Assembly: GCA_045534605.1 (NCBI GenBank)
Contig: JAZSKA010000018.1
Coordinates: 1,175 to 65,174, forward strand
Direction of reading: 5' to 3'
Length of the DNA: 64,000 nucleotides
From: Christensenellaceae bacterium
Lineage (GTDB): Bacteria; Bacillota; Clostridia; Christensenellales; Borkfalkiaceae
This document shows, in pieces, positions 18,448 to 47,653 of the stretch; the stretch's first letter is position 1, and every line of letters begins with the position of its first letter. The position numbers were made by a program, and so were the translations under genes. The notes under the pieces are model-generated. The model made no database searches, had not been told where the DNA came from, and saw only the letters and a program-made list of their open reading frames with translations.

Positions 18448-18623
18448 AAAAATAGCGGTAATCGCCTTATAGCGCGATTACCGCTTAAATTTTATATCTT
18501 ATTTTTTATAATAATCATTTTTAACACCGCCCAAAAAGGGCAAAAAAAATGCCCTAATCCTTACGAATAAAGTGCGCACACCGTAAGATTAAAGCCAAAA
18601 AAAACCTTTTTTCTTAGTCTGTA
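18446..18623 (-). ncRNA. Candidate small RNA (orphan promoter, stem-loops, terminator)
   Basis: Lies downstream of the minus-strand promoter at 18629-18657. Contains the stem aatccttacg/cgtaagatt (18556-18590), competing GCCC/GGGC/GCCC pairings (18529-18554), and ends at palindrome C1 followed by a T-run. There is no ORF. Confidence 0.25.
18454..18485. repeat. 32-nt palindromic repeat, copy C1 (T-variant loop)
   Basis: agcggtaatcgc-cttatagc-gcgattaccgct, a 12-bp perfect stem. Confidence 0.9.
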
Positions 18624-18628
18624 CTTGT

Positions 18629-18657
18629 ATAATAACACAATCTTTACTATTTGTCAA
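18629..18657 (-). promoter_or_regulatory. Orphan sigma-A type promoter pointing into non-coding DNA
   Basis: Minus strand reads TTGACA-17 nt-TATTAT. Confidence 0.4.
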
Positions 18658-18690
18658 CTTTTTTCGAACAAATTTAATTATTTGCAATTA

Positions 18691-18719
18691 AAAATAAAGG
18701 GCAAGATAAGTTGCCCTTT
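18691..18719 (-). terminator. Intrinsic terminator of the GNAT-TIR operon
   Basis: Stem aaagggcaa / ttgcccttt, with a T-run on the minus strand. Confidence 0.65.
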
Positions 18720-18811
18720 AGTGTGGATAGACTTAAATGTCTGGTCGGAACACCCCGACGCCACGTTTATTATTATATGTAATACTACCTCAAAGATCAA
18801 CTAATAAATTT

Positions 18812-18843
18812 AGCGGTAATCGCCATATAGCGCGATTACCGCT
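18812..18843. repeat. 32-nt palindromic repeat, copy C2 (A-variant loop)
   Basis: agcggtaatcgc-catatagc-gcgattaccgct, identical to C3. Confidence 0.9.
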
Positions 18844-18895
18844 TCAATTTTAAGCAATTAATGCAAAGCGAGAACACAATTAAATTAATATTCAC

Positions 18896-20212
18896 TTAAA
18901 ATTTTATCGAATAAATTACATACCCTGCCGAAAATATAACTTCACCCGAAAAGAATCTTTCATTTAGATCATCATAATGTTTTTCGCAAAACTCACAAAC
19001 TTCTTTAGCTATTTGTGATTTTGGATTTTCACGAAGCATGCGCGAGAAATCATTAGGAATAAAACTAAACCACGACTCAAAAAGCGCTATTTTATCTTTT
19101 CTTGACATATTTGAAGTATTTATACCATAACGCTCAAGACAAATTTCTTTAGGCTCCATTTTTCTCACATAAGAGTAAACTTGTCTACCCGTATATCTAT
19201 ACCCGCTATAAATATTATGAATATAAAAAGATTGAAATTTAGAAAACAATCCGTCCTTATCCGGATAAACAAAGACTGCGCCATCGTCAACATCACGCAC
19301 AATCATTACAGCATTTTCATTTAAACAGTTTTGAATTGCCTGTAAAATTTTAAACGGCTTTTTAAAATCCATAATTGCCATGCTCAAATAAACGATATCA
19401 ACGCCGTCTACGCCAACTTTTTCAAGACAACTCATAAGTTGTTCTTCAAAATCTTGAGCCTCAAATTTCACTTGGAAAAAATCTATTTCACCATTTTCTG
19501 TATAATTATGTTTATCTGCATTACCTTGTTTTACAATATCTTCGCTATATGTAAGAGCGATAACTCTAGTTATTTGAGGAAATTTTAAGCGCGCATAAGA
19601 ACCTTTCGTGCTTAAAACGTTCACATCGAGACAAACAACGTCTTCTTTTCCTTCTAACAATTTTTCTACGATAGGTTTTTCATATTTAGCAAGAAGTGCA
19701 TCCTCTGTTCTCAACCTATGCTTTTCAGCCTCGTCCTCATCATAGTAATAACGAACATCATCATGTCGGTCGTTTAGATTGGACTTTCTTTCGTCAATTT
19801 TTACACTGCGAAGCATAGAAATAATTTTTTCGACCGTCGCATCAAAATATTCCCTGCTTGACGGAACCCCATTTAAAAGTGGGAGTACCTGTAATGATAC
19901 AGGTAATTTTTCAGGAAAAGAAAATCCCACCATCATAACTGGTATTATGTTCTTTTTTTGTTTTATTGCGTGCTCAATTTCAAGTCTTAGCCAATCGCTT
20001 TCAGATGCGCATCTATCTAACGAGTTTGGTGGCAAAACTAAAACGAAGTTCTCACTTTCGTCAATTGCTTCGTAAAGTTTTTCGTTAAAAGCACCCGATT
20101 GAAGTTCTTCAAGATCTAAAAAGACAGAAAGCCCCGCTTTATTAAAACACTCATATAGAAGTCGTGCCATCGGAAAACCGCCATCTCGTCTATAACTTAT
20201 AAAAATATCCAT
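18896..20212 (-). CDS. TIR-domain protein fused to a degenerate class-I methyltransferase-like domain
   Basis: The N-terminus DIFISYRRDGG...FVLVLPPNS...SDWLRLEIEHA is a bacterial TIR signature with the conserved Glu. The C-terminal half resembles a Rossmann MTase but has VVCLDVNVLSTKGS in place of a GxGxG loop. Confidence 0.75.
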   Translation of the reverse strand: MDIFISYRRDGGFPMARLLYECFNKAGLSVFLDLEELQSGAFNEKLYEAIDESENFVLVLPPNSLDRCASESDWLRLEIEHAIKQKKNIIPVMMVGFSFPEKLPVSLQVLPLLNGVPSSREYFDATVEKIISMLRSVKIDERKSNLNDRHDDVRYYYDEDEAEKHRLRTEDALLAKYEKPIVEKLLEGKEDVVCLDVNVLSTKGSYARLKFPQITRVIALTYSEDIVKQGNADKHNYTENGEIDFFQVKFEAQDFEEQLMSCLEKVGVDGVDIVYLSMAIMDFKKPFKILQAIQNCLNENAVMIVRDVDDGAVFVYPDKDGLFSKFQSFYIHNIYSGYRYTGRQVYSYVRKMEPKEICLERYGINTSNMSRKDKIALFESWFSFIPNDFSRMLRENPKSQIAKEVCEFCEKHYDDLNERFFSGEVIFSAGYVIYSIKF

Positions 20213-20218
20213 AATTAC

Positions 20219-21325
20219 TTATCCTTTATACACCATTTTATAACACGGAACGTCTTTTACCCCAGGGTATTCATACGCTATTTTAAACCCAAGTCTTTGA
20301 TAAAGCCTAACAGATGAGATATTTGCTACTACACACTCAAGCACGCAGTCCTCGTCTTTTTTGAGTAGATAATCGACTAAAGCACCCGCAATTCCACGCT
20401 TGCGATAATTTGAATCCACCGTTACGTTGGCGATATAAAATCCGCCATCGTCTTCTCCCATTTTTTCGTAATACGCTTCAAAAATTTCATGCGTTCGCGA
20501 GTCGCATTTAACCCCCGAAAGACTAAAAGCCGAACGAATATCATCCTCTTTTTCTGTAAAAGGCAACCTCTTTGAAACCATTGCCCCCGCTATAAATCCT
20601 TCGCTAGTTACGGCAACAGTAATATTTTCCTTGTTGTAAAGCGTAGGCAAATTTATCATTTCGCGAATTACTGAAATCCCATCTTCTATATTATCAAACC
20701 AGTACGGATAAATATAAGGATCGGTTAAATAAATTAATTTGGCTACTTGATTTATATCATCTCCGTCTCTAAACTCGCGTATTACGATATCTTTTGACTT
20801 GTTAGGTTGTATTCCTATTTCTCTAGTCATATATTCGTAAAACGAACGATATTCTTCTTTTTCTAACGCTCTCGGAAAAGACAGAATTTTTAATTCAAGA
20901 TCTTCGTCTCCTAGATGATACTTTGCCTGAATATGGTAATACGGATTCATTATAAAACCGTTTCTTTTATAAAAACCGTATCTTCGCTCAGTCATTTCAT
21001 CAATAGGAGGTTCAATTTCTAGCAAAATAATTTTGTTCTTTTTCTTTAACAAATCTAATGCTTTAGCGCCAAACCCCTTACCTCTTACGATTGGCATAGT
21101 TGCAAAATGCTCTAAAAAAACAAAGTCTTTCGTTTCCCAATAAAGCATTATACCAATAAATACACCATCTTTTAGTATAAGGTCAAAATGATATTCCGCC
21201 TTACCCATCACTCTCACTTGTTCTAAATTATCTCGTCTTTCTTCAACTGGAAAAGCCGATTCATATAACTTAAATGCTTGATTAAATAATTGCTCTTCTT
21301 TGCTTGAAAGTCTTTTTAGTTCCAC
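20219..21325 (-). CDS. Tandem GNAT N-acetyltransferase (two GNAT domains)
   Basis: 368 aa with a GTG start after AAGGTGA. There are two acetyl-CoA binding motifs, VRGKGFGAKAL and YRKRGIAGAL. A 6-nt gap separates it from the TIR gene. Confidence 0.8.
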   Translation of the reverse strand: MELKRLSSKEEQLFNQAFKLYESAFPVEERRDNLEQVRVMGKAEYHFDLILKDGVFIGIMLYWETKDFVFLEHFATMPIVRGKGFGAKALDLLKKKNKIILLEIEPPIDEMTERRYGFYKRNGFIMNPYYHIQAKYHLGDEDLELKILSFPRALEKEEYRSFYEYMTREIGIQPNKSKDIVIREFRDGDDINQVAKLIYLTDPYIYPYWFDNIEDGISVIREMINLPTLYNKENITVAVTSEGFIAGAMVSKRLPFTEKEDDIRSAFSLSGVKCDSRTHEIFEAYYEKMGEDDGGFYIANVTVDSNYRKRGIAGALVDYLLKKDEDCVLECVVANISSVRLYQRLGFKIAYEYPGVKDVPCYKMVYKG

Positions 21326-21355
21326 TTTTCACCTTAAATTTTTCTTATTTATTCT

Positions 21356-21383
21356 ATTATATCATATATTTTATTATTTTCAA
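21356..21383 (-). promoter_or_regulatory. Promoter of the GNAT-TIR operon (extended -10)
   Basis: Minus strand reads TTGAAA-16 nt-TATAAT, with TG upstream of the -10 (TGATATAAT). Confidence 0.5.
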
Positions 21384-21402
21384 TATTTTTTTAGAAAATT
21401 TT

Positions 21403-21434
21403 AGCGGTAATCGCCATATAGCGCGATTACCGCT
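21403..21434. repeat. 32-nt palindromic repeat, copy C3 (A-variant loop)
   Basis: Identical to C2. Confidence 0.9.
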
Positions 21435-21450: not shown

Positions 21451-21933
21451 TTAGTCGTCGTTTTCGTCTTTGTGGTGGTGATGTCCGCAATTGCAACCTT
21501 CTTCTTTATCGCAGTCGCAATCGTCGTCACAGTCGCAATCGCCATCGCAGTCGCAATCGCCATCGCAGTCGCAGTCTCCATCGCAGTCGCAGTCGCAACT
21601 AGAATGGCAACCGCAGTCACATTCTTCTTCATAGTCGTCTTCTTCGTCCATTTCAGCAACGAACGCTTGGAAAACTTCGTCAAGTAATGCTTCGTCTTGA
21701 ACAGGAGCGAGTTGTTCGTCGCCGTCGTCGCCAACAATTTCGAAAATTACGACTTCTTCGTCGTTAAGACCGTCTATTTCTTGAGCAGGTTGGAAAAATG
21801 CGAACCATCTTTTGTTGTGTTCGATAGTTCCGATATGGTAAAATTTAAACACGTCACCGTTTTCGTTTTTAAGGTCTACAACGGCAATGTCTTCTTCGTT
21901 TTCGTTAATAACTTCTTTGTAATTGTCTGACAT
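21451..21933 (-). CDS. DUF1292 (YrzB-like) protein with Cys/Asp-repeat and His-run C-terminal tail
   Basis: The N-terminal roughly 100 aa match the DUF1292 pattern (VDLKNENGDVFKFYHIGTIEH..RWFAFFQP...VVIFEI). The tail is ECDCGCHSSCDCDCDGDCDCDGDCDCDGDCDCDDDCDCDKEEGCNCGHHHH. Confidence 0.8.
   Translation of the reverse strand: MSDNYKEVINENEEDIAVVDLKNENGDVFKFYHIGTIEHNKRWFAFFQPAQEIDGLNDEEVVIFEIVGDDGDEQLAPVQDEALLDEVFQAFVAEMDEEDDYEEECDCGCHSSCDCDCDGDCDCDGDCDCDGDCDCDDDCDCDKEEGCNCGHHHHKDENDD
21511..21597 (-). repeat. In-frame 18-bp tandem repeat encoding (CDCDGD)n
   Basis: The gcagtcgcaatcgccatc unit is repeated about 4-5 times with minor variants. Confidence 0.8.
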
Positions 21934-22402: not shown

Positions 22403-23821
22403 TTAAATATCAATTAAAAAGCCTTGTAATCTTTCTGGCTTAAAACTATACGGATTCAAGCGCAAAAAGTCGAATGCGTTGGTGGTTAAAAGTTCCGCCC
22501 CGCCTTCGTTTAGAAAACTTCTTGAAGCAATACTGCTGTTTAGATAAAAGACAATTCTTGACGGGATATTTGCCTTTATTACGCCGTTAATAAAAATTGA
22601 TTCGAACCGAGCGGTAGATATAATTAAATGTATTCCGCTTGCGCGCGATTTTTGCAAAAGCGTGCAGAGTTTTTTCTCGAAATCTTTTTTCATCATAACT
22701 TCAAGCGCAGAAAACTCGTCGATAGCATAGACAATGTATTTTAACGGTTTTTCACTATTAATCGCGTTATAGCCCGATATATTACGAACTTTACTTTCAT
22801 TAAACAGCGAATATCTTCTTTCCATTTCGTCAATCAAGTCACCTAAAACTTCCATCGTTTTTTCGGCTGAAGTGATAACGCCTTCACCTTCGAGATATTC
22901 AGATTTATCAAAAGACTTAAACCCACCGAATATACTCGAACAGTAAAACTTTACGATATTATGCGAGTATCTTAGCGAAATGCTTTTAAGTATTCCTTCC
23001 ATAAAACGCAAAAGTTCGCTTCCGATAACGCCACTTATAAGTAAGTGCGGTTCACTCGTTAAATCAGAATAGACGACGTCGCCGTCTACGTTTATTCCAA
23101 CGGGATAAACCAAATTTCCGCTTGGAGCAACTAAATTTTCAAGCGAATTCAAACTTGGCAAAGTCTTTTCGCCGTTTTCTACTTCAAAATTAATTATTCC
23201 CCTATCGAAAGTTACCCTTACGCTAAATACGTTTAAAGCAATTTTGACATCGCTAATAAGTTTTAAAAAACTTGTAGGTTTTCCGTCGCAAACGAACGAA
23301 TATTTCGTATAGCACCCCGTCTTTACTGGGGTTAAAATTTCAGTAACAGTCGTAACCTTTTCGATAACGTTTAAAATTTTAATTTGCTCACCAGTCAGTT
23401 TGCCTTTTGGTGGGAATATTTCGTTTATTCTATAAAATAAAGTTTCTAAATGCGTAAATACGTCGTCGCCAACCGCTTCAATCCATTGTGAAAGTTGCAA
23501 AAAATAATTAAGTTTTATAGGTAAATTAGGCGTAATTTTAAACGGAATAATAGTTTTTTCTGCGCTGAACGCTAAGCTCATCTCTGCCCTTACGTGCACA
23601 GATTTATCGGCGTTTTCAGAAAAAATCAACACCACAAGCGCGCAATTTTTTATCGCGTCTTCAAGTTCGTCAGGATAACTTTCACCACCTAAAACGTCGC
23701 GCGACGAAATAAAGCAGTCGTAACCGCGTTTTTCCAAAAATTCGACGACAGTTTCAGCAGTTGACAAATCTTTTGATGAAAATGATATAAATATATCTTT
23801 GTTTGCGTTTATTTTATCCAT
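22403..23821 (-). CDS. TIR-domain protein fused to an FtsK/SpoIIIE-like motor domain with degenerate Walker A
   Basis: The N-terminus is DIFISFSSKD...LVVLIFSENADKSVHVRAEMSLA. The C-terminal region parallels the FtsK core: PHLLISGVIGSELLRF (in place of GxxGSGKS), Walker B YIVYAIDEFSAL, RASGIHLIISTARFE and IPSRIVFYLNSSIASRSFL. Confidence 0.75.
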   Translation of the reverse strand: MDKINANKDIFISFSSKDLSTAETVVEFLEKRGYDCFISSRDVLGGESYPDELEDAIKNCALVVLIFSENADKSVHVRAEMSLAFSAEKTIIPFKITPNLPIKLNYFLQLSQWIEAVGDDVFTHLETLFYRINEIFPPKGKLTGEQIKILNVIEKVTTVTEILTPVKTGCYTKYSFVCDGKPTSFLKLISDVKIALNVFSVRVTFDRGIINFEVENGEKTLPSLNSLENLVAPSGNLVYPVGINVDGDVVYSDLTSEPHLLISGVIGSELLRFMEGILKSISLRYSHNIVKFYCSSIFGGFKSFDKSEYLEGEGVITSAEKTMEVLGDLIDEMERRYSLFNESKVRNISGYNAINSEKPLKYIVYAIDEFSALEVMMKKDFEKKLCTLLQKSRASGIHLIISTARFESIFINGVIKANIPSRIVFYLNSSIASRSFLNEGGAELLTTNAFDFLRLNPYSFKPERLQGFLIDI

Positions 23822-28870: not shown

Positions 28871-28950
28871 TTGCTCAAATATGCAAATAACCGCCATATA
28901 GGCGGTTGTTTACGATAAATTAATATATGAACATTTGTTATAAACGTATA

Positions 28951-28980
28951 AAAAACGGATTGCGAACGCAATCCGTTTTA
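28951..28980. terminator. Bidirectional terminator between the WYL gene and dut
   Basis: Stem acggattgcg / cgcaatccgt flanked by an A-run and a T-run. A weaker hairpin aaccgcc/ggcggtt lies at about 28886-28905. Confidence 0.75.
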
Positions 28981-28991
28981 TTCTTTATTCT

Positions 28992-47621: not shown

Positions 47622-47653
47622 AGCGGTAATCGCCTTATAGCGCGATTACCGCT
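47622..47653. repeat. 32-nt palindromic repeat, copy C4 (T-variant loop)
   Basis: Identical to C1. Confidence 0.9.

Follow-up and report, generated by a model that had tools for sequence, protein, structure and literature searches.

A two-gene cassette lies between potD and the gene of a DUF1292 protein in the DNA analysed here, a stretch of 64,000 nt from contig JAZSKA010000018.1 of a Christensenellaceae bacterium (assembly GCA_045534605.1), which is called the window in the following. The upstream gene encodes a tandem GNAT acetyltransferase, the downstream gene a TIR domain joined to a pseudo-methyltransferase domain (TIR-pMT). The cassette is bracketed by copies of a 32-nt palindrome, and its position is that given in an earlier description from the letters of the window alone (the first-pass annotation): palindrome copy C1 lies 6 nt past the potD stop codon and copy C3 follows the DUF1292 gene. 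We have high confidence that the cassette is a strain-specific carrier of a conserved, co-evolving module in which a dedicated GNAT accompanies a latent TIR of the SARM1 type joined to a pseudo-methyltransferase. The operon comprises the following features (window coordinates; evidence in brackets):

18896..20212, minus strand: TIR-pMT gene (438-aa open reading frame)
18899..19750, minus strand: pseudo-methyltransferase domain, residues about 155-438 (Foldseek, Pfam, motif comparison)
19793..20212, minus strand: SARM1-type TIR domain, residues 1 to about 140 (Pfam, profile, Foldseek)
19979-19981, minus strand: codon of the catalytic glutamate E78 (aligned with SARM1 E642)
20219..21325, minus strand: tandem GNAT gene (368-aa open reading frame)
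20222-20794, minus strand: C-type GNAT domain, about residues 178-368 (Pfam, fold search)
20831-21325, minus strand: N-type GNAT domain, about residues 1-165 (Pfam, fold search)
21383-21356, minus strand: operon promoter TTGAAA, 16 nt, TG-extended TATAAT (consensus scan, 11/12 positions)

Open reading frame calls and the promoter scan agreed with the proposal of two minus-strand genes, 6 nt apart and in the same orientation, under a single promoter. The latter, a strong one, was the top promoter-like match of the region scanned; it has palindrome C3 on one side and the start codon of the GNAT gene on the other. The first-pass annotation had also described the cassette as AT-rich and poor in CpG, which is true to a modest extent. 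Its GC content was 33.9% versus 37.2% in the window, and the observed/expected CpG ratios of the two genes, 1.49 and 1.57, were about one standard deviation under the mean (1.77 ± 0.21). The GC content at third codon positions (GC3) was 25.7% in the TIR-pMT gene, the minimum among 51 genes (mean 35.9, standard deviation 4.3), and 29.3% in the GNAT gene.

Domains of the two proteins

The N-terminus of the 438-aa protein matched Pfam TIR_2 at 2.3e-13. In the AlphaFold model of the protein (pLDDT 79), the domain superimposed in Foldseek on the TIR domain of SARM1 with 42-44% identity and TMt values of 0.83-0.87. A profile of 30 family homologues recognized the SARM1 TIR at E = 1.6e-35, the next-best solved TIR at 3e-4. 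The retained glutamate at about residue 78, noted at first pass, proved to be aligned with the glutamate of VHKEIV in SARM1 and is invariant across the 30 homologues. In the same 30-sequence alignment the residues F4-R9 (FISYRR motif), D33, E35, the BB-loop glycine G40 and W74 are invariant or nearly so, as is E78. According to a preprint, the animal SARM1 TIR branches within a bacterial clade (PMC13142454), and the TIR of the cassette appears to belong to the bacterial clade around SARM1. From these residues the domain is predicted to be a latent NAD+-cleaving enzyme. SARM1 and the cassette protein have the catalytic glutamate, the FISYRR motif and the BB-loop glycine in common, and the latter is predicted to follow the SARM1 logic of an autoinhibited NADase joined to a regulatory domain. 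They differ in the regulators, which are N-terminal ARM and SAM domains in SARM1 and a C-terminal pseudo-methyltransferase in the cassette protein, and in the dedicated GNAT partner of the latter.

The C-terminal half had been described as a Rossmann methyltransferase domain with a replaced glycine-rich loop, and both the fold search and the motif comparison bore this out. Foldseek assigned it to the class I Rossmann-like seven-strand methyltransferase fold (3mgg, TMt 0.66), with further matches to LahSb, RebM and the non-methylating SpnF; the AlphaFold and Foldseek results thus back both the TIR and the methyltransferase fold. The Pfam match to Methyltransf_31 was partial (3.5e-6) and confined to profile positions 52-113, i.e. 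beyond the S-adenosylmethionine-binding loop. Motif I reads CLDVNVLSTKG in the cassette protein versus LDIGSNNG in intact relatives, with loss of the glycines, and motif II reads ALTYS versus GIEYD, with loss of the acid that closes strand 2. The intact relatives follow the patterns LD[IV]G[SCA]N[ND]G and G[IVL][ED][YF], the cassette family the invariant CLDVNVL..KG and ALTY. Given the loss of the motif I glycines and the motif II acid, the domain is no longer expected to bind S-adenosylmethionine in the canonical manner and is probably a pseudo-enzyme or makes use of another cofactor.

In the 30-sequence alignment CLDVNVL, the stand-in for GxGxG, is itself invariant, the mean column identity of the domain amounts to 78%, and the lid motifs DVDDG..YPD, SGYRYTGRQ and WFSFIPNDF are invariant. 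Since the replacement motif is invariant and conservation is high elsewhere in the domain, the alignment indicates a conserved pseudo-methyltransferase under strong purifying selection with no sign of decay. With class I methyltransferases of the 3mgg or Methyltransf_23/31 type the domain shares the fold and the lid motifs D-x-DD...PD and G-x-R-x-GR, but it lacks the motif I glycines and the motif II acid; with 3mgg itself, D-x-DD...YPD, G-x-R-x-GR and WFSFIPNDF are common. The fold has a non-methylating precedent in SpnF. NCBIfam matches of the domain were all far under the cut-off, a fold search of BFVD returned generic viral methyltransferases only, and the nearest of the solved structures, 3mgg, belongs to an uncharacterised protein. 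The wider methyltransferase family (399 representatives) also occurs as stand-alone proteins of about 285 aa and as methyltransferase-GNAT fusions, whose GNAT domains had no detectable similarity to the GNAT of the window. The TIR type joined to the methyltransferase-like domain varies, being either SARM1-like or of a type marked by the motif CWYAPR.

Two GNAT stretches were detected by Pfam in the 368-aa protein, and its AlphaFold model reached a pLDDT of 89. The motif A acetyl-CoA loops, VRGKGFG and YRKRGIA, fit the pattern R/Q-x-x-G-x-G/A and, like the tyrosine general acids, are conserved in the 30-sequence alignment; the protein was thus correctly described as a double GNAT with both motifs intact and is predicted to be acetyl-CoA-competent. 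The N-type domain matched an uncharacterised Bacteroides thetaiotaomicron protein (3ey5; E = 3e-30, TMt 0.87), and the nearest structures of the C-type domain were 4m85 and 1u6m, both uncharacterised, and RimI/Naa-like enzymes. Other tandem GNATs, such as MshD, MAB_4324, the clavulanate tandem GNAT and glucosamine N-acetyltransferase, likewise hold two GNAT folds per chain, but they belong to other domain families and overlap poorly over the whole protein (TMt about 0.3); set against them, both acetyl-CoA loops of the cassette protein look intact.

Conservation of the gene pair

Each of the two proteins has more than 120 full-length homologue clusters in gut metagenome-assembled genomes labelled Clostridia, Candidatus Coproplasma or Oscillospiraceae, with identities of 59-81% to the TIR protein and 52-70% to the GNAT protein. 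At least 35 pairs of a GNAT and a TIR cluster occur on common contigs, as concluded from the identical lengths of their longest contigs. In every context examined (10 distinct contexts), the TIR gene is preceded by a GNAT gene at a distance of 1-10 nt. The neighbours vary with the context and comprise BacA/TMEM164 with MmeI nearby, Gly_kinase/DAO, QueA/PDH, MatE/DZR, DUF3267/rubrerythrin, arginase and, in one case, the end of an IMG/VR contig. The two genes therefore co-occur elsewhere, as the first-pass annotation required of a genuine system; as to the defence islands that it proposed to look for, most contexts of the pair are housekeeping neighbourhoods instead.

The partnership extends to distant relatives of only 28-36% identity, in which the GNAT domains are arranged differently. 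At locus L029, a TIR-pMT gene with 28-33% identity is flanked by two separate single-domain GNAT genes in the order GNAT (C-type), TIR-pMT, GNAT (N-type); compared with the domains of the window, the C-type protein is 32% identical (E = 7e-31) and the N-type protein 25% (E = 1e-9). The pMT domain at locus L030 is 35% identical, and the gene lies between those of a 435-aa protein with a terminal C-type GNAT domain (E = 1e-19) upstream and of a TIR-GNAT protein downstream. At locus L026 a C-type GNAT alone accompanies the TIR-pMT protein. These three architectures define a C-type GNAT and a TIR-pMT protein as the conserved core. The partnership is real and old. That two unrelated genes merely came to lie side by side by chance is hardly credible, given adjacency in all 10 contexts, over a range of 28-81% identity and through gene fission and fusion.

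Sister fusions, in which the TIR is joined to an intact methyltransferase (37% identical, about 440 aa), are encoded at four loci. At L022 and L024 no GNAT homologue was detected in the 6-7 kb of flanks read, and the other two (L004 14150-15487 and L026 10192-11472, in unrelated genomes) lie 1-5 kb from a GNAT/TIR-pMT pair; the L004 paralogue adjoins the gene of a PnuC nicotinamide mononucleotide transporter. The GNAT association appears to track the pseudo-methyltransferase and not the TIR type, with one confirmed locus, L029.

The tightly packed operon at L030 (1-9253) consists of five genes, for a coiled-coil protein of more than 1,100 aa, a 464-aa protein, the 435-aa protein with terminal GNAT, the TIR-pMT protein and the 512-aa TIR-GNAT protein. 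PADLOC matches in this operon were limited to the TIR domains. The operon is possibly a bigger relative of the cassette system.

The claim that no described system matches the cassette was upheld by the searches. PADLOC gave no match to the GNAT protein and only generic matches, below cut-off, to the TIR domain, NCBIfam matches were likewise confined to the TIR domain and far under the cut-off, and literature searches returned no system of TIR and GNAT or of TIR and methyltransferase. The combination of TIR, pseudo-methyltransferase and GNAT is thus undescribed in the family libraries and literature searched. Thoeris, the TIR effectors of CBASS and Pycsar, SpbK and retron-TIR systems are likewise TIR-based small operons, presumably NAD+-processing, and the cassette resembles them in being accessory and strain-variable. 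It differs from them in its partners, a GNAT and a pseudo-methyltransferase, and in the lack of a SIR2/SLOG, Macro, CARF or SAVED partner. ThsB models matched the TIR weakly (Pfam ThsB_TIR 18 bits, cut-off 21.2; NCBIfam ThcB4 40, cut-off 220), and the cassette is not Thoeris because no ThsA is encoded beside the TIR gene. This also agrees with the earlier remark that a ThsA-like partner is missing, the cassette holding only the GNAT and TIR-pMT genes.

Strain-variable slots and their palindromes

The flanks of the cassette have 91-96% DNA identity to at least eight conspecific loci, each encoding an identical RuvX; eight are listed, and further similar places bring the count to 17 of the 23 contigs read. 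In all eight listed loci the interval between the DUF1292 gene and potD holds a gene for a 219-240-aa HTH_3/Zn_ribbon_2 protein and no cassette; this gene was not found in the window. The cassette is consequently not universal in relatives, and the expected empty site is taken by an alternative occupant. Homology to the relatives stops exactly at the outer palindromes. In a collection of 15 billion proteins, each cassette protein is a singleton when clustered at 90% identity, the best foreign homologues being 81% and 70% identical; at the same threshold the flanking PotD and TIR-FtsK proteins have 15-17 cluster mates over many contigs. Because of the singletons, the distant best homologues, the other gene in conspecifics and the low GC3, the accessory status is clear, and the cassette is with high confidence a strain-specific insertion in the host species.

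DNA homology of the cassette to other loci is limited to the coding sequence (64-70%), and a close donor was not found in the collections searched. A sliding-identity analysis of the flanks gave no indication of a recombination tract, with raised divergence only in the repeat-bearing DUF1292 gene. The latter (21451-21933, minus strand) encodes a C-terminal Cys/Asp-rich repeat (CDCDGD)n followed by HHHH, and the protein measures 136-160 aa among conspecifics; the dip to 84% identity beside the cassette is due to the varying length of this repeat. Phage collections contained no match to the pair, and plasmid collections yielded two TIR-only matches on Paraburkholderia megaplasmids and no pair. 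One pair locus was present in IMG/VR, at the end of a 55-kb contig past a serine recombinase, where it probably belongs to the host flank.

Two further observations concern the surroundings. A second TIR fusion of 472 aa is encoded 1 kb from the cassette (22403-23821, minus strand), with an N-terminal TIR (TIR_2 match at 2e-19) and an FtsK/HerA-type ATPase domain; it has partial PADLOC matches to the SspH C-terminus and to mad8 and is present in all conspecific relatives. Another strain-variable slot lies between the genes of a dUTPase and a WYL regulator. It measures only about 120 nt in the window (28871-28991) and holds one to three genes (442 or 374+56 aa, plus 153 aa) at L007 1687-3478, L008 1687-3478 and L011 3016-3477, with no palindrome copies.

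The palindrome, AGCGGTAATCGC-N8-GCGATTACCGCT (12-8-12), occurs four times in the window in the same orientation, with none expected by chance. The copies and the spacer next to the cassette are:

18454..18485: palindrome C1, left-hand edge of the variable slot, 6 nt beyond the stop codon of potD (T variant)
18486..18811, minus strand: non-coding spacer between C1 and C2, with a promoter-like site (18657-18629) and hairpins
18812..18843: palindrome C2, downstream of the TIR-pMT gene (A variant)
21403..21434: palindrome C3, right-hand edge of the variable slot, a terminator-like hairpin following the DUF1292 gene (A variant)
47622..47653: palindrome C4, the only copy in a second slot (T variant)

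The first-pass annotation had rightly noted that the cassette is bracketed by the identical copies C2 and C3 with the A variant and that C1 and C4 carry the T variant. The palindromes do bracket an accessory insertion, but they belong to the variable slots of the host and not to the cassette, as no flanking repeats were present at seven other loci with homologous pairs; they do not travel with the pair. In a scan of GTDB species representatives the palindrome was found in one genome only, the metagenome-assembled genome RGIG2223, with five copies at two loci. A match in a JGI metagenome (L016) was rejected as a chance match inside a coding region of 66% GC. At the second slot, which allows an empty and an occupied state to be compared, the window has the single copy C4 and RGIG2223 has three copies, which bracket two AT-rich cassettes that are not in the window (L015 3663-6436): one with a YpsA-SLOG-like protein and two XRE genes, the other with an XRE gene, a DUF6273 lipoprotein-like protein and a 153-aa protein. 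Each cassette inserted there adds exactly one palindrome, and about 50 nt are repeated per junction. Upstream of C4 (47400-47620), within a block of 91.8% identity common with L015, short hairpins are each followed by TATATT or ATATAAC, the latter at least three times; this region had no Rfam match.

We read the palindromes as bidirectional terminators that double as a junction, or short homology, for the exchange of cargo, in the manner of minimal mobile elements. The hairpin of C3 has a DNA folding energy of -14.4 kcal/mol (z = -5.7), and C1-C3 each score as a terminator on both strands, 6-52 nt past stop codons and surrounded by A- and T-runs. With the minimal mobile elements of Neisseria (Saunders and Snyder 2002, as cited in PMC1538595) the slot shares strain-varying cargo between the same conserved flanking genes, found here as alternative cargo in conspecifics, and the lack of mobility genes. 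It differs from them in that its breakpoints are copies of one 32-nt (about 50-nt) palindromic terminator, which multiplies with each insert. Integron cassettes are promoterless, with an imperfect attC and an intI gene, whereas this cassette has a promoter and perfect 12-bp arms and is not one of them.

Alternatively, the palindromes might be core sites of a trans-acting site-specific recombinase (lox/FRT/dif-like) that moves the cassettes as circles, like integron or pdif modules. The 12-bp inverted arms around an asymmetric 8-bp spacer would suit such sites, tyrosine-recombinase cores having arms of 11-13 bp around 6-8 bp, and so would the identical orientation of all copies in all genomes, the homology that ends exactly at the palindrome edges, the gain of one palindrome per cassette at the second locus and the A spacer that C2 and C3 share, all other copies having T. 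We nevertheless consider this explanation unlikely. No integrase or recombinase was found in the annotated 3.8-50 kb of the window (the scan did not extend to the initial 3.8 kb or to genes from 50.4 to 64 kb), genomes hold only about five copies, and these sit exactly at gene 3' ends, where A- and T-runs and bidirectional scores are those of terminators. Moreover, the repeated unit of about 50 nt suffices for RecA-dependent short-homology recombination, and at L007 a segment of 381 nt beside C1 entered without palindrome duplication.

Over its first 178 nt, the C1-C2 spacer matches, at 97.8% identity, a segment that only a subset of the relatives carries (L007 11703-12125, L008, L012). Its near-consensus minus-strand promoter, TTGACA-17-TATTAT with TG, is followed by hairpins and a T-run, which makes a small RNA of some 100 nt a candidate product of the spacer; the fold z-score is only -1.65. 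Rfam gave nothing at gathering score in the window and only sub-threshold matches in this spacer.

Proposed function and alternatives

We propose, at a probability of roughly 0.45, that the module is an NAD+-consuming conflict system gated by the pseudo-methyltransferase and the GNAT, i.e. an abortive-infection or addiction switch. Among prokaryotic TIR enzymes, most of those characterised belong to conflict systems, and TIR NADases require oligomerisation. The TIR domain would be the effector, cleaving NAD+ upon oligomerisation in the manner of SARM1 and bacterial TIR effectors. Having kept its substrate-binding lid, the pseudo-methyltransferase would bind the ancestral substrate of its family or a protein partner and thereby control assembly and gate the TIR. 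The translationally coupled GNAT would transfer acetyl groups from acetyl-CoA to the same ligand or to the TIR protein itself, and this acetylation could set the off state or the activation threshold in an antitoxin-like fashion. The result would be NAD+ depletion of the abortive-infection or addiction type, encoded by cargo that is swapped between strains, with no mobility gene, at a slot bounded by a species-specific palindromic bidirectional terminator.

Several findings weigh against this proposal. Recognisable neighbours from defence systems or mobile genetic elements were present in two of about ten contexts (MmeI at L001; DMP19 and small genes at L026), the rest being housekeeping genes, and a conservation of 60-81% identity across many lineages is unusually high for a defence gene. 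PADLOC has no model for the GNAT, and the pair is missing from phage and plasmid collections. The existence of methyltransferase-GNAT fusions with intact S-adenosylmethionine motifs implies that the GNAT is no simple replacement for methylation, and the link between the loss of these motifs and the GNAT partnership comes from few loci; the roles of the pseudo-methyltransferase and the GNAT are ones that we infer. A function in defence specifically is accordingly put forward as a weak suggestion.

The main rival, which we regard as a serious though less likely alternative, is a non-defence pathway for a small molecule derived from NAD or linked to ADP-ribose. The TIR would then work on a metabolite bound by the methyltransferase-like domain, whether as NAD+ glycohydrolase, as base-exchange enzyme or as ADP-ribosyl transferase, and the GNAT domain or domains would acetylate this metabolite or its ADP-ribose conjugate, which the intact methyltransferase of the sister family would methylate instead. 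SARM1-type TIRs do catalyse base exchange, and the methyltransferase family resembles small-molecule methyltransferases (3mgg, RebM, TleD, UbiG-like) and occurs stand-alone, GNAT-fused and TIR-fused. The mostly housekeeping contexts, the high sequence conservation and the paralogue beside a PnuC transporter at L004 would also fit a metabolic role. A pathway of this kind is harder to reconcile with a cassette that is strain-specific in its host species and relocates between genomes, with the lack of further conserved pathway genes nearby, and with the conflict-like appearance of the five-gene operon at L030, which has a second TIR and large proteins of no assigned function. Far less probable is the suggestion that the GNAT is a toxin of the TacT/AtaT type, a kind of module mentioned at first pass, acting by aminoacyl-tRNA acetylation, with the TIR-pMT protein as its regulator or antitoxin. 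GNAT toxins exist, and a two-gene operon is the layout to be expected of them. TacT, AtaT and KacT are, however, single-domain proteins of about 170 aa paired with a ribbon-helix-helix (RHH) or DUF1778 antitoxin; the cassette has no such antitoxin and encodes a 368-aa tandem protein whose partner is a TIR fusion with a conserved catalytic domain. The nearest structures are 3ey5, 4m85, 1u6m and RimI/Naa-like enzymes, and no tRNA-acetylating toxin was named among the top solved-structure matches listed from the sequence and fold searches.

In the cassette, a TIR about 43% identical to that of SARM1 has two obligate partners that are absent from described systems, a pseudo-methyltransferase and a GNAT. 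It could reveal a novel mechanism for gating NAD+ destruction or a new acetylated signal derived from NAD, and the series of fission and fusion products (fused tandem GNAT, separate GNATs, a GNAT at the end of a 435-aa protein, TIR-GNAT and methyltransferase-GNAT) offers a set of natural constructs. In the slots bounded by palindromes, uncultured gut Clostridia are seen to exchange accessory cargo without recognisable mobility genes. It is doubtful that both halves of the picture hold jointly, namely a new TIR family with acetylation-gated NAD+ destruction or signalling and cassettes shuffled at a terminator palindrome that doubles as recombination site. If they did, a SARM1-type NADase under a pseudo-methyltransferase sensor and one or two dedicated GNATs would represent a new regulatory logic, located in the bacterial clade reported as the source of the animal SARM1 TIR, and the shuffling at palindromes would constitute a cassette system that works without mobility genes.

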